Both the position numbers and the translations under genes were made by a program. Of a stretch of 46,106 bases of DNA, positions 19,578 to 40,591 are shown piece by piece. Position 1 is the stretch's first letter. The number at the start of each line of letters is the position of its first letter. Origin of the DNA: a virus (lineage: Duplodnaviria > Heunggongvirae > Uroviricota > Caudoviricetes); the IMG/VR virus record IMGVR_UViG_2939127364_000005, one strand, 5' to 3'. The notes beneath the pieces are model-generated. The model was not told the DNA's origin and did not search any database. It saw only the letters and a program-made list of their open reading frames with translations.

Positions 19578-20481
19578 TCGCCCTCCTGAGAGACGGGATT
19601 TACGTGCATCCAGTGCATCACGCATAACGGTGATCGCATCGGTGCTGTTGACAAGTTCATCAGCCAGTCCGGCATCAATGGCCTCCTGACCGCTGTACAC
19701 TGCAGCCTCGGTATCCAGCACAGCCTGCACGGACAGGCCGGTATATGCCGACACCTTCTGCGCAAACATCCGGCGGGTTGCATCCATCCGGGACTGCAGT
19801 GTCTCCCGGACGTCATCCGGAAGATGGCTGTAGGGGTTGCCATCCACCTTATGGCTGCCGCTGTAAATCAGCGTGATTTCCACGCCCTGTTTCTCCAGCG
19901 CAGCACCGTAATTACTGTGAGCCATCATGACGCCGATGGAGCCTGTCCGGGCGGTCTGCGTGACCAGACGCCGGGAGGCGGCGCTGGCAAGCAGCTGACC
20001 TGCACTGCAGTTCATGTCGTTGGCCAGCGCCCATACCGGTTTTATGTCTCGCACACGGGCGATGATGTCAGCACAGTCAAATGCTCCCGCCACCATCCCG
20101 CCCGGTGTGTCCATATCGAGCAGAATGCCGTCCACCATCGGATCGCTGGCAGCCTGTTGCAGACGGGCGATAATGCCGTTGTAACCGGTCATTCCCGAAT
20201 ACGGCTGCAGCGCCCGCGTCCGGCTGACCAGCGTGCCGGACACCGGCAGCACGGCGATGCCGTTCATGACCTGATAACTGCGGGCCTGTCGTGGTCCGTC
20301 ATCATCACCGGATAATGCCAGCGTCGCGAGTGCCTCCTGGGCAGTCAGGCTGTCGCCGGACACCGCATCCGTCAGGCGGCTGATCCCAAGCTGGCCTGCA
20401 AGCGCACAAAAGAAAACCCGCGCATAGGCGGGTTCAAGCATCAGCGGCTCATTAAAGGCCATGCTGGCAATATGCGGGAGA

Positions 20482-36708: not shown

Positions 36709-37614
36709 ATGCCAAATTTACCGATGGGCGGATCGCAGGGTGAATTACCCTTAGTACCTACAGTAGAAGTTGTTGCTGATGGCATTCCTATGGGGGTGCT
36801 TAATGATGGAACCCCTTATCTAACTCTTTACGGTTTAGCCAAATTATGTGGCATAGATGAAGCACCTCTTCGAATGTTTACATCTAACTGGGAGACTGAA
36901 AAAAATAAGCCAAGAGGACAAAAAGTAGCTGCATACTTAGCTGAGAAAGGATTTAACAACGTTGACCGACTGTATACCCGCGTCATAAATAGCTCAAACG
37001 TTGAAACACATGCTTATCCTGACTATGTTTGTATGGCTATCCTCCGTTACTACGCTCTAGATGCCACCAATTTTGATAGGTCAGTCGCAATAGGTAATTT
37101 TGTTCGCTTGGCTGAGTACACGCTTAAGCGAATGATTTATGAAAAGTCAAATTACAACCCAAATGCTTCAATAGATATCTCATTCGAGAACTATAGAGCA
37201 AGGATTAAGCTAAACGATCAGATACCGACAACTCATTTTGCAGTATTCAGAGAGATAGCTGACATTGCCATGAACCTGATCGGAGGAGGATTCCCAATGG
37301 ATGACACCACATCTTTGGATGGAAGTGTTGGAATTCACTGGGGAAAGTATTGGACAGCTAATGGGCTATCTGAGAAATTCGGGGAAAGGGTGCAGTACCC
37401 ACATCTATTCCCCGAAAATTACAGGCAGTCAGCTGCAAATAAGCATATAACAGCTTGGATTTATCCTATTGAGGCACTTGGCGTGTTCAGAAAATGGCTA
37501 CACGATAATTACGCAATGGAAAAACTGCCAAATTACCTTGGGAACAAAAAGATTAGTAATGCCTCCGAGCTATTAGAGTCGATAAAAAAACCAGCACTCC
37601 CAAATAAGCATTGA
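36709..37614 (+). CDS. Uncharacterised 301-aa protein at the rexAB position; N-terminal KilA-N/Bro-N-like motif, C-terminal half unassigned; candidate repressor-linked defence gene (possibly BstA-like)
   Basis: Directly downstream of cI on the same strand; motif GTPYLTLYGLAKLCGI resembles KilA-N/Bro-N DNA-binding domains; no similarity to RexA or RexB as recalled; followed by a strong terminator. Confidence 0.6.
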   Translation: MPNLPMGGSQGELPLVPTVEVVADGIPMGVLNDGTPYLTLYGLAKLCGIDEAPLRMFTSNWETEKNKPRGQKVAAYLAEKGFNNVDRLYTRVINSSNVETHAYPDYVCMAILRYYALDATNFDRSVAIGNFVRLAEYTLKRMIYEKSNYNPNASIDISFENYRARIKLNDQIPTTHFAVFREIADIAMNLIGGGFPMDDTTSLDGSVGIHWGKYWTANGLSEKFGERVQYPHLFPENYRQSAANKHITAWIYPIEALGVFRKWLHDNYAMEKLPNYLGNKKISNASELLESIKKPALPNKH

Positions 37615-37626
37615 TCTCCACCACAA

Positions 37627-37652
37627 CCCGGCATCTGCGCCGGGTTTTCTTT
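37627..37652 (+). terminator. Rho-independent terminator after the 301-aa gene (CCCGGC-loop-GCCGGG then TTTTCTTT)
   Basis: Hairpin plus T-run read from sequence. Confidence 0.65.
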
Positions 37653-37802
37653 GCCTAACGCCCCCAAAAAACACATAACCAATTGTATTTATTTTAAAAT
37701 TAATAGATACAACTCGCTAAACATCGCAATTCAGATCTCTCGATCACCTTCCCAATCCACACAACCCTGCAAAAAATAAATCTATATAAAAAACATACAG
37801 AT

Positions 37803-37865
37803 AACCATCTGCGGTGATAAATTATCTCTGGCGGTGTTGACACAGGTACCACTGGCGGTGATACT
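37803..37865 (+). promoter_or_regulatory. Left operator and pL: OL3 37803-37819, OL2 37823-37839, OL1 37847-37863; pL -35 TTGACA 37837-37842, -10 GATACT 37860-37865
   Basis: Operators AACCATCTGCGGTGATA, TATCTCTGGCGGTGTTG, TACCACTGGCGGTGATA read from sequence; 17-bp promoter spacing. Confidence 0.8.
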
Positions 37866-37905
37866 AAGCGCATCAGCAGGACGCACTAACCACCATTGAA
37901 GGTGA

Positions 37906-37936
37906 GGCTCTTAAAAATTTAGCCCTGAAGAAGGGC
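37906..37936 (+). promoter_or_regulatory. nutL: nutL: boxA-like GCTCTTAAAAA and boxB hairpin GCCCTGAAGAAGGGC (37922-37936)
   Basis: Canonical lambda nutL motifs upstream of N. Confidence 0.8.
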
Positions 37937-38046
37937 AGCATTCAAAGCAGAAAGCTTTGAGTAGCGCGAAATGCAGCTGCAAGACAGCAACCGTGGAGAT
38001 AAGCATCACGGCGCGTTACTCAAAGCTAACTGACAGGAGAATCCAG

Positions 38047-38370
38047 ATGGATGCACAAACACGCCGCCGCGAACGTCGCGCAGAGAAACAGGCTCAATGG
38101 AAAGCAGCAAATCCCCTGTTGGTTGGGGTAAGCGCAAAACCAGTTAACCGCCCTATTCTCTCGCTGAATCGCAAACCGAAATCACGAGTAGAAAGCGCAC
38201 TAAATCCGATAGACCTTACAGTGCTGGCTGAATACCACAAACAGATTGAAAGCAACCTGCAACGTATTGAGCGCAAGAATCAGCGCACATGGTACAGCAA
38301 GCCTGGCGAACGCGGCATAACATGCAGTGGACGCCAGAAAATTAAGGGAAAATCGATTCCTCTTACCTAG
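38047..38370 (+). CDS. N: Antitermination protein N (107 aa from MDAQTRRRERRAEKQAQWKAAN)
   Basis: Matches lambda N including the arginine-rich boxB-binding motif. Confidence 0.9.
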   Translation: MDAQTRRRERRAEKQAQWKAANPLLVGVSAKPVNRPILSLNRKPKSRVESALNPIDLTVLAEYHKQIESNLQRIERKNQRTWYSKPGERGITCSGRQKIKGKSIPLT

Positions 38371-38922
38371 TTACTTAGATATTGGCCTTGGCTTTATCTC
38401 AATATTATATGGATCATAGCTGGCAACTAATTCAGTCCAGTAAATATCCTCAATAGGGAATAATATATGCTTCCCGTTCCATCGGGAAAAAGTTTTGTTC
38501 AACACACCAAGCTCAATCAACTCACTAATGTATGGGAATTGTTTTGATGTAACCACATACTTCCTGCCTTCATTAAGGGCTGCGCACAAAACCATAGATT
38601 GCTCTTCTGTAAGGTTTTGAATTACTGATCGCACTTTATCGTTTTGCATCTTAATGCGTTTTCTTAGCTTAAATCGCTTATATCTGGCGCTGGCAATAGC
38701 TGATAATCGATGCACATTAATTGCTAGCGAAAATGCAAGAGCAAAGACGAAAACATGCCACACATGAGGAATACCGATTCTCTCATTAACATATTCAGGC
38801 CAGTTATCTGGGCTTAAAAGCAGAAGTCCAACCCAGATAACGATCATATACATGGTTCTCTCCAGAGGTTCATTACTGAACACTCGTCCGAGAATAACGA
38901 GTGGATCCATTTCTATACTCAT
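38371..38922 (-). CDS. sieB: Superinfection exclusion protein SieB (183 aa from MSIEMDPLV)
   Basis: Matches lambda SieB as recalled; convergent with and abutting N. Confidence 0.85.
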   Translation of the reverse strand: MSIEMDPLVILGRVFSNEPLERTMYMIVIWVGLLLLSPDNWPEYVNERIGIPHVWHVFVFALAFSLAINVHRLSAIASARYKRFKLRKRIKMQNDKVRSVIQNLTEEQSMVLCAALNEGRKYVVTSKQFPYISELIELGVLNKTFSRWNGKHILFPIEDIYWTELVASYDPYNIEIKPRPISK

Positions 38923-39049
38923 CAAACTGTAGGGGTTGTAATAGTTTATCCGATTTCTCGCTGTAGGGGTACACGAGAACCACCGAGCCTGATGTGGTTA
39001 AAAGACAGGCACAATCTTTACTACCGCAATCCACTATTTAAGGTGATAT

Positions 39050-39136
39050 ATGGAAGAAGAATTTGAAGAGTTCGAAGAGCATCCTCAGGATGTGATGGAA
39101 CAATACCAGGACTATCCGTATGACTACGACTATTGA
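39050..39136 (+). CDS. Small acidic ORF (28 aa, MEEEFEEFEEHPQDVMEQYQDYPYDYDY), lambda orf28-like
   Basis: Same position and size as lambda orf28 upstream of ral; overlaps the ral start. Confidence 0.45.
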   Translation: MEEEFEEFEEHPQDVMEQYQDYPYDYDY

Positions 39137-39320
39137 TAAAAATCAATGGTGTGGACAATTCAAGCGATGCAATGGATGCAAGCTGCAATCGGAATACATG
39201 GTTAAGCCTGAAGAAATGTTTCCTGTAATGGAAGATGGGAAATATGTCGATAAATGGGCAATACGAACGACGGCAATGATTGCCAGAGAACTTGGTAAAC
39301 AGAACAACAAAGCTGCCTGA
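39120..39320 (+). CDS. ral: Restriction alleviation protein Ral (66 aa)
   Basis: MTTTIDKNQWCGQFKRCNGCKLQSEYMVKPEEMFPVMEDGKYVDKWAIRTTAMIARELGKQNNKAA matches lambda Ral as recalled. Confidence 0.9.
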   Translation: MTTTIDKNQWCGQFKRCNGCKLQSEYMVKPEEMFPVMEDGKYVDKWAIRTTAMIARELGKQNNKAA

Positions 39321-39456
39321 TAGTGGCCTTTATTTTTGGCATAAATAACAGAATAAACACTGCACTGTGTATTCATTCCAACGAGTGAATACACGGAGCA
39401 ATGTCGCTCGTAACTAAACAGGAGCCGACTTGTTCTGATTATTGGAAATCTTCTTT

Positions 39457-39483
39457 GCCCTCCAATGTGAGGGCGATTTTTTA
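39457..39483 (+). terminator. Rho-independent terminator in the pL operon (GCCCTC-CAATGT-GAGGGC then GATTTTTTA), between ral and ea10
   Basis: Hairpin plus T-run read from sequence. Confidence 0.6.
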
Positions 39484-39502
39484 TCTGTGAGGATATGAAC
39501 AG

Positions 39503-39871
39503 ATGTCAAACATCAAAAAATACATCATTGATTACGACTGGAAAGCATCAATAGAAATTGAAATCGACCATGACGTAATGACAGAGGAAAAACTTCACCA
39601 GATTAATAATTTCTGGTCAGACTCTGAATACCGACTCAATAAACACGGCTCTTTATTAAATGCTGTATTAATCATGCTGGCGCAACATGCTCTGCTTATA
39701 GCAATTTCGAAAGACTTAAATGCATATGGTGTTGTTTGTGAGTTCGACTGGGATGATGGAAATGGTCAGGAAGGATGGCCTCCAATGGATGGTAGTGAAG
39801 GAATAAGAATTACCGATATCGATACATCAGGAATATTTGATTCAGATGATATGACTATCAAGGCCGCCTGA
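39503..39871 (+). CDS. ea10: Ea10 (122 aa)
   Basis: Position between ral and cIII and length (369 bp) match lambda ea10 as recalled. Confidence 0.7.
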   Translation: MSNIKKYIIDYDWKASIEIEIDHDVMTEEKLHQINNFWSDSEYRLNKHGSLLNAVLIMLAQHALLIAISKDLNAYGVVCEFDWDDGNGQEGWPPMDGSEGIRITDIDTSGIFDSDDMTIKAA

Positions 39872-39943
39872 GTGCGGTTTTACCGCATACCAATAACGCT
39901 TCACTCGAGGCGTTTTTCGTTATGTATAAATAAGGAGCACACC

Positions 39944-40108
39944 ATGCAATATGCCATTGCAGGGTGGCCTGTTGCTGGCTGCCCTTCCGAATCTTTACTT
40001 GAACGAATCACCCGTAAATTACGTGACGGATGGAAACGCCTTATCGACATACTTAATCAGCCAGGAGTCCCAAAGAATGGATCAAACACTTATGGCTATC
40101 CAGACTAA
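39944..40108 (+). CDS. cIII: cIII (54 aa from MQYAIAGWPVAG), FtsH inhibitor
   Basis: [54 protein letters not shown] matches lambda cIII as recalled. Confidence 0.9.
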   Translation: MQYAIAGWPVAGCPSESLLERITRKLRDGWKRLIDILNQPGVPKNGSNTYGYPD

Positions 40109-40220
40109 ATTCACTATCGCCACTTTTATTGGCGATGAAAAGATGTTTCGTGAAGCCGTCGACGCTTATAAAAAATGGATATTAATGCTGAAACTGAGAT
40201 CAAGCAAAAGCATTCACTAA
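40077..40220 (+). CDS. kil: Kil (47 aa from [10 protein letters not shown]), host-killing FtsZ inhibitor
   Basis: [47 protein letters not shown] matches lambda Kil as recalled. Confidence 0.85.
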
Positions 40221-40591
40221 CCCCCTTTCCTGTTTTCCTAATCAGCCTGGCATTTCGCGGGCGATATTTTCACAGCTATTTCAGGAGTTCAGCCATGAAC
40301 GCTTATTACATTCAGGATCGTCTTGAGGCTCAGAGCTGGGCGCGTCACTACCAGCAGATCGCCCGTGAAGAGAAAGAGGCAGAACTGGCAGACGACATGG
40401 AAAAAGGCCTGCCCCAGCACCTGTTTGAATCGCTATGCATCGATCATTTGCAACGCCACGGGGCCAGCAAAAAAGCCATTACCCGTGCGTTTGATGACGA
40501 TGTTGAGTTTCAGGAGCGCATGGCAGAACACATCCGGTACATGGTTGAAACCATTGCTCACCATCAGGTTGATATTGATTCAGAGGTATAA
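40175..40591 (+). CDS. gam: Gam (138 aa), RecBCD inhibitor
   Basis: Matches lambda Gam as recalled. Confidence 0.9.

Follow-up and report, generated by a model that had tools for sequence, protein, structure and literature searches.

Exclusion by SieB and the antisense escape from it make up a classic, thinly studied defence of phage against phage. The sieB/esc/sas system of phage P22 was reportedly described by Ranade & Poteete in 1993 (J Bacteriol 175:4712 and Genes Dev 7:1498), and the same authors are said to have identified the sieB promoter of lambda through its homology to that of P22. In the curated GenBank entry for P22, BK000583, sieB has an annotated 31-bp promoter and a marked 'sieB RNA start site', and esc begins 24 codons into sieB. 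A discrete antisense RNA, sas, has been reported for P22 (PMC13397905); in Table 2 of that 2026 small-RNA survey it is 127 nt long and contains CUGUAGGGGU twice. According to summaries in PMC12197685 and PMC7067206, P22 sas makes the sieB message yield Esc, an in-frame inhibitor of SieB, in place of SieB itself. The ends and the origin of sas used here are those of the 2026 table and of published abstracts.

Other described systems also bear on a short sequence repeated across a promoter. In the paired operators of lac (O1/O3), gal (OE/OI) and lambda (OL/OR), identical short sites flank the -10 element at a fixed distance. The CII-activated promoters of lambda carry a TTGC-N6-TTGC direct repeat at -35, and in IS10 the loop of RNA-OUT pairs with the 5' end of RNA-IN.

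The DNA that we analysed is an IMG/VR virus record of 46,106 nt (Caudoviricetes, IMGVR_UViG_2939127364_000005), the whole of which is called the window here. Positions 38700-39200 correspond to phage lambda J02459 34707-34207 with 99.8% identity, the sole mismatch being at position 39196, in ral, and this match means that the plus strand of the window runs in the direction of the leftward pL transcript. The genes around the repeat are the following.

Ending at 38370, plus strand: N (local gene list)
38371-38925, minus strand: the sieB ORF of 184 aa, with TTG at 38925 and ATG at 38922
39050-39136, plus strand: orf28 (ORF list)
39120-39320, plus strand: ral (local gene list)

The locus has the same order as in P22, namely N, sieB on the opposite strand, its promoter and ral, and the DNA of the two phages is homologous and nearly identical from the proximal copy of the repeat through orf28 into ral. 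This homology starts exactly at 38927 (query base 228), the first base of the proximal copy, whereas the sieB coding and leader sequences that precede the first repeat show no DNA relationship between the two phages. Both phages share an internal in-frame start 24 codons into sieB. In lambda this is Met25, at 38853, which has an SD sequence. Pfam PF14163 (SieB) covers residues 25-183 of the lambda ORF in a domain search, and OM418626 annotates the sieB start and RBS at this same internal Met25, with a good SD sequence. As Met25 has the same offset as the P22 esc start in BK000583, it appears to be the counterpart of esc, and the shorter lambda product would then correspond to Esc. The start codon of lambda sieB is ambiguous between TTG 38925 or ATG 38922 and the internal Met25 at 38853. 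A further difference from P22 is that TTG 38925 and ATG 38922 lie just 11-14 nt from the predicted 5' end of the lambda mRNA and have no SD sequence; translation of lambda SieB may thus use an mRNA with hardly any leader.

The repeat and the promoter elements are arranged as follows, the start being predicted from P22.

38927-38936, plus strand: proximal copy CTGTAGGGGT, read as ACCCCTACAG on the minus strand, predicted +1 to +10 of the sieB mRNA
38936, minus strand: predicted sieB transcription start, 5'-ACCCCUACAGUUUGAUG..., transferred from P22 (BK000583)
38943-38948, minus strand: putative -10 hexamer TAAACT, 6 nt upstream of the predicted start, by homology to P22
38961-38970, plus strand: distal copy CTGTAGGGGT, at -25 to -34 from the predicted sieB start, overlapping the annotated -35 hexamer
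38968-38973, minus strand: weak, putative -35 hexamer TGTACC, at the outer limit of the annotated P22 promoter

The two copies of CTGTAGGGGT are exact, lie 34 bp apart start to start, and stop matching at 10 nt (aCTGTAGGGGTtgt versus gCTGTAGGGGTaca). Both had been seen in the preliminary description, which gave the second copy correctly, set the first one base off (38926-38935 instead of 38927-38936), and rightly located the pair upstream of sieB on the minus strand and before orf28 on the plus strand. It had also suggested that the sieB promoter be looked for by prediction and by comparison with the lambda sieB upstream region. The comparison showed the window to be lambda at this point, with a promoter homologous to that of P22. 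Prediction was less productive: a generic promoter scan of 38300-39500 called no promoter, and we therefore placed the promoter by homology to P22.

In P22 the annotated sieB RNA start is the last base of the homologue of the proximal copy, and the mRNA begins ACCCCUACAG (BK000583 compared with the sequence). The promoter annotated in that record extends from the -10 hexamer TAAACT to TGTACC, ending inside the distal copy, and lambda equals P22 at every base of these 31 bp (38943-38973 in the window). TGTACC matches the consensus at three of six positions and is separated from the -10 hexamer by a 19-bp spacer. By this homology, the lambda sieB promoter would lie between and over the two copies, with its -10 hexamer between them, and the complement of the proximal copy would form the first 10 nt of the sieB mRNA. 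The preliminary proposal of sites for a regulator of the sieB promoter thus holds in so far as the copies bracket the -10 hexamer of the promoter homologous to that in BK000583; its reading of them as targets of a regulatory protein is unsupported. In all repeat-bearing classes (see below) a -10-like hexamer stands between the copies (TAAACT, TAAAAT, TATAAT, TAATCT or TATATT), always 5-8 nt from the proximal copy, and in the fetched relatives it is TAAACT, TAAAAT, TATAAT or TCTAAT.

On the statistics of the window alone the repeat is unremarkable. Exact 10-mer pairs no more than 60 bp apart number 20 in the window, at about 12 distinct places (2.8 +/- 2.1 in Markov shuffles). With one mismatch allowed, CTGTAGGGGT has 5 matches where 1.56 are expected, a number reached in 4 of 100 shuffles. 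A third exact copy, with about 0.09 copies expected per window, is found at 19828-19837 within a minus-strand ORF of 477 aa; no hairpin or promoter context was seen there, and this copy is probably due to chance. It is because the pair at sieB is conserved in other phages at a fixed spacing, and not because of window statistics, that we count it as non-chance. Resemblance of the repeat to LexA, CRP, DnaA-box or boxB sequences was also considered, and none fits.

The antisense strand of the locus can likewise be compared with P22.

38901-39027, plus strand: putative lambda counterpart of the P22 sas locus, ends transferred from P22 by alignment

P22 sas has its 5' end 5 nt inside sieB and its 3' end 17 nt past the conserved block that closes the module (sequence from PMC13397905), and contains both copies of the repeat. 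Beyond the first few bases of the spacer, lambda 38927-39027 and the P22 sas region differ at one position, and the start codons at 38925 and 38922, as well as the predicted +1 at 38936, all fall within the transferred interval. Judging from this alignment, lambda 38901-39027 appears to be the homologue of the P22 sas locus, running antisense across the start codon and 5' end of sieB, and lambda seems to have the same promoter and antisense module as P22. By analogy, switching from SieB to Esc by the antisense RNA may carry over from P22 to lambda. Reading the plus strand by eye across the classes revealed no consistent -35/-10 pair that could act as a dedicated promoter for the antisense RNA, which probably derives from the long operon transcript. 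An SD-like role for UAGGGGU was rejected, since no conserved start codon lies downstream. An Rfam covariance search of 37500-40500 at E <= 1 returned Lambda_thermo, the cIII thermoregulator, alone (39931-39989, a full-length match with 88.5 bits), leaving the repeat region uncovered.

Of the 12 relatives that we fetched, 11 retain the two exact copies 34 bp apart, while the intervening sequence differs; Stx, Klebsiella and Hafnia prophages are among the carriers. The phages with both copies are lambda, P22, Stx1a_10051, 689R2, HK630, Kp4866-6, 720R6, Hafnia phage Pocitis76, SEN22, Lambda_2E9 and SPN9CC. The preliminary description had named the absence of the repeats from related phages that retain sieB regulation as the observation that would speak against it; we found the repeat in every examined related phage that retains sieB. 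Phage 21 lacks both sieB and the module. In this phage (L205, 501-600) the stop codon of N is joined directly to the orf28/ral leader, and this junction puts the right-hand border of the sieB cassette near 39026, 15 nt past the block and near the 3' end of P22 sas.

The flanks of the module differ on both sides among lambda, P22, HK630, 2E9, SEN22, 720R6 and Pocitis76, and no regulator gene was found to be co-inherited with it among these phages. The minus-strand gene that the module serves encodes a lambda-type SieB, a P22-type SieB, HkaP, or ORFs without a Pfam match. Because homology in many phages ends right after CAGGCA at 39011, we take the conserved unit to be about 85 bp long (38927-39011), and the comparisons point to mosaic joints at both of its ends and to no linked protein gene. 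Its end away from sieB is formed by the following block.

38980-39010, plus strand: conserved 31-nt block CCACCGAGCCTGATGTGGTTAAAAGACAGGC, the end of the module in most relatives

The block occurs once in the window, where no copy is expected by chance. We anchored the family search on this 3' block (CCACCnnGCCTGAnGTGGnnAAAAGnCAGGC, lambda 38980-39010) and not on the repeat, and found it in more than 120 viral contigs (IMG/VR enterobacterial prophages). In the form CCACCnnGCCTGAnGTGGnnAAAAG(n)CAGGC it always abuts the start of a minus-strand gene (loci L016-L135). Two architectures were seen, in which either a motif is duplicated at 33-35 bp or a single hairpin stands beside the block. The duplicated architecture comprises five lineages with differing motifs, each duplicated at 33-35 bp.

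Class A motif: CTGTAGGGGT
Class B motif: TTGTTGTTGGGGA
Class C motif: TTGACTGTGGAA
Class D motif: TTGCATTGGGG
Class E motif: TTGTGGGGG

Fifteen distinct class A sequences, recovered with a search anchor outside the repeat, keep both copies exactly. Since the spacers of the classes are recognisably homologous (…AGATTTTAACCGATTTCTCG in class A versus …AGATTAACCGAATCCTTG in class B), the duplicated arrangement appears to have arisen once, both copies then having changed together. Across classes, the identity between copies ends at +1 and extends into the transcript. In three loci (L192, L046 and L081) the copies differ by a transition, with the hairpin described below kept and the proposed intermolecular duplex mismatched.

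Where the hairpin is single, about 36 of 48 distinct sequences carry an extended -10, GGTGG-TATnCT, on the minus strand, and the stem covaries (CTTGG/CCAAG, GCTGG/CCAGC and CCTTAAAA/TTTTAAGG). These sequences suggest that in such phages the block itself is the promoter, with transcription starting inside the hairpin loop. Two IMG/VR contigs (L057 and L072) have the -10 hexamer, the distal copy, the hairpin and the block intact, the proximal copy and the minus-strand gene being replaced by unrelated sequence with a CCCCC/GGGGG hairpin; they look like natural 'half modules'.

The pL-sense RNA of the module has the following predicted structures.

38955-38979, plus strand: hairpin HP2, UUCUCG-C-UGUA-GGGG-UACA-CGAGAA in the pL-sense RNA
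38980-38983 with 38994-38997, plus strand: stem S1 of a probable pseudoknot, CCAC/GUGG
38987-38991 with 39006-39010, plus strand: stem S2 of the same pseudoknot, GCCUG/CAGGC

HP2 is present in the MFE and centroid folds alike. The distal copy contributes its bulged C, upper 5' arm, GGGG loop and the first base of its 3' arm, and in all duplicated classes the distal copy is the upper 5' arm and GGGG loop of the hairpin that abuts the block. Over 18 distinct sequences of classes A, B, D and E, 90.6% of cells are paired (36-64% in slid controls), and 7 of the 11 pairs have changes on both sides. Around 30 of the cells hold G·U or U·G, which on the opposite strand would be C·A mismatches, and in classes B, D and E the plus strand hairpin is far more stable than its minus strand equivalent (for example, -10.1 versus -1.6 and -14.2 versus -5.7 kcal/mol). 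Because the G·U pairs exist on the plus strand only and the hairpin is more stable there, we assign the hairpin to the pL-sense strand and take the selected structure to reside in the pL-sense (sas-sense) RNA. Taken as a whole, the region folds no better than shuffled sequence (z = +0.8 for the plus strand and -0.3 for the minus strand), and the local HP2 is its one robust element. In lambda, P22 and HK630 the proximal copy seemed to have a hairpin of its own, HP1, but over all repeat classes it reaches 4.69 bp against 4.46 bp in mismatched-flank controls, and we rejected it as a general feature.

The 31-nt block probably forms an H-type pseudoknot. Stem S2 has one fully compensated variant (AUCUG/UAGGU, in L187) and four wobble variants on the plus strand, and is changed on both sides to GCCGG/CCGGC in L278, from other Enterobacterales modules. 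Two-sided changes in S1 come from Symbiopectobacterium and Rosenbergiella modules, where the stem becomes CCCUC/GAGGG (L222) and CGGG/CCCG (L271). In a set of 21 selected variants from which disruptive ones were left out, 97.9% of cells pair and 4 pairs are double-changed. We grade the pseudoknot as probable, not proven, because about ten single-base variants that break pairs remain, four in S2 and six in S1.

The explanation of the repeat that we favour, with moderate confidence, is that the sieB mRNA is complementary at its 5' end to the antisense hairpin, so that the two copies reflect a match at the RNA level. The portable 85-bp module (38927-39011) would drive the minus-strand 'moron' gene sieB, and its opposite strand would encode the 3' part of a sas-type antisense RNA. 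In a lysogen, with pL off, sieB mRNA would be made and translated; upon infection or induction, pL transcription would cross the module in the antisense direction and produce a structured RNA which, carrying the proximal copy, HP2 and the pseudoknot, would pair with the 5' end and start region of the sieB mRNA. In P22, this pairing would shut off SieB, Esc synthesis continuing. The first 8-13 nt of the mRNA, complementary to the proximal copy, would match the hairpin loop and upper 5' arm provided by the distal copy, and the two copies would stay identical because loop and upper arm must remain complementary to the mRNA 5' end. The 34-bp spacing would be plainly the distance from -35 to +1. 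What the second site does, where the RNA originates and every RNA step in lambda are inferred.

Complementarity is in our view the simplest explanation because the proximal copy, which has no conserved local partner, tracks the distal copy in every class. The calculated duplex between the mRNA 5' end and the distal copy has -22.0 kcal/mol in lambda, compared with -9.9 for HP2 alone, and the same comparison in class B gives -26.7 and -10.6 kcal/mol. Several points weigh against pairing at such a seed: the antisense RNA already contains a contiguous perfect complement in the proximal copy, so that the second site looks redundant, and without opening of the upper stem a helix of ten bases would fit poorly, for steric reasons, into a closed hairpin loop. 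The mismatched copies of L192, L046 and L081, the fold energy of the whole region and the pairing count given below also speak against it.

Among the alternatives, operators for a DNA-binding regulator, placed at -35 and +1 and repressing or tuning the sieB promoter, would suit copies that are strictly conserved, that bracket the core promoter at a constant 33-35 bp and that accompany a poor -35, which is common in regulated promoters. We nevertheless consider operators quite unlikely. The copies are direct repeats, no dyad symmetry or palindrome being found in the CTGTAGGGGT sites and no likeness to known binding motifs being recognised; no regulator gene travels with the module, which is found in phages with unrelated immunity regions; and each lineage's motif would need a protein of its own, with both copies changing together. 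Moreover, the distal copy is under selection for RNA structure, as seen from strand-specific G·U pairs and compensatory changes, the same stretch lies inside the published P22 sas RNA, and the identity between copies stops exactly at +1. Paired operators of the lac, gal and lambda kind differ from this repeat in the same respects, since here the motif varies with lineage, lacks dyad symmetry and a known or linked protein, and covaries at the RNA level at one site. The CII-activated promoters share with sieB a direct repeat and a promoter with a poor -35; they differ in motif and in spacing (10 bp, compared with 34 bp here), and the sieB repeat has a copy at +1 and no TTGC. A chance repeat without function could appeal to the 10-mer pairs within 60 bp at about 12 places in the window and to the third copy in a coding region, but we give it a negligible weight, as conservation of both copies at fixed spacing in many divergent prophages, with neighbouring sequence changing, refutes it.

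The two remaining alternatives accept the RNA structure. One is an intramolecular switch in the pL-sense RNA, in which the proximal and distal copies would compete for the 3' arm of HP2. The upper 5' arm of this hairpin has the sequence of the proximal copy, the strand-specific structure is on the plus strand, and two alternative folds would set the processing, stability or activity of the antisense RNA; in L192, L046, L081 and L011 the proximal base can still pair with the base of the HP2 3' arm, as G·U or Watson-Crick. However, such a helix has no need of the GGGG loop and the one further base in which the identity is best conserved, class A would form just 4 bp (UGUA/UACA), and a systematic count of 72 intramolecular versus 66 intermolecular cells showed no preference and no signal separating the two kinds of pairing; we regard the switch as quite unlikely. 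The other, in our judgement rather unlikely, is that a short duplication left two copies with no functional coupling, each kept for its own reason. HP2 alone would explain the distal copy and the +1 position the proximal one, L192 kept its hairpin at the expense of copy identity, and L057 and L072 retain the distal half without a proximal copy. Against this stand the homologous spacer in five classes, which implies one origin followed by matched changes at several positions, and the identity of unpaired loop-adjacent bases, which independent constraints would not maintain.

The preferred reading, pairing of the antisense hairpin with the 5' end of the sieB mRNA, would liken the module to IS10. 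RNA-OUT and RNA-IN also have convergent overlapping promoters and a stable antisense hairpin with a loop complementary to the extreme 5' end of the mRNA, and a block of the start region by pairing is proposed here by analogy with them. The sieB module differs in that the complementary sequence occurs twice in the antisense strand, in that 34 nt separate the hairpin copy from the contiguous antisense copy and a pseudoknot comes after the hairpin, and in that the probable source of the antisense RNA is a long operon transcript, with no promoter of its own. As a wider and distinctly tentative possibility, the modules of Enterobacterales prophages might encode structured antisense RNAs that form a family so far undescribed, with the hairpin as a lineage-specific seed for the moron mRNA. 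Each member would consist of a GGGG-loop hairpin and an A-rich H-type pseudoknot and would sit over the promoter of an opposed 'moron' gene that directly follows N. The seed would be encoded in one motif copy and the target, the first 8-13 nt of the moron mRNA, in the other. If true, classes A to E could give class-specific control, phages of one class could interfere with each other when they are co-resident or superinfect, and from the motif class one could tell which prophages are able to silence the exclusion genes of one another.

Knowledge of the promoter and of the P22 antisense RNA dates from 1993, and the lambda stretch is a close homologue; the present findings refine a known system. 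Neither Rfam nor the searchable literature yielded a description of the GGGG-loop hairpin, the probable pseudoknot, the co-evolution of the repeat copies or the extent of the family, and within the searchable literature the repeat-bearing sequence is printed in PMC13397905 only. Part of the module would be a conserved structured RNA, made up of a hairpin and a probable pseudoknot, and its two 10-mers appear to co-evolve across many prophages. This offers a testable model of how prophage accessory genes that oppose the pL operon may switch at lytic onset, and the alignment could seed an RNA family model, which Rfam does not have.

Some loci recovered in the search are identical to lambda (100%, flanks included) and come from assemblies of unrelated taxa, among them Nocardioides, Vibrio, Paenibacillus, Bradyrhizobium, Enterococcus and Streptomyces. 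They are L217, L219, L220, L224, L235-L237, L239, L242, L246, L250, L252, L255, L258, L259, L261, L264, L265, L268, L275 and L277, and they sit on short, mostly low-coverage contigs; they almost certainly represent contamination of the assemblies with lambda DNA. Elsewhere in this part of the window, a two-way hairpin, TTCCCGTTCCATCGGGAA, is found at 38471-38488, within the 3' part of sieB, and a strong terminator-like hairpin followed by a T-run is located at 39455-39476, in the gap from ral to ea10 where the tL2 terminators lie.
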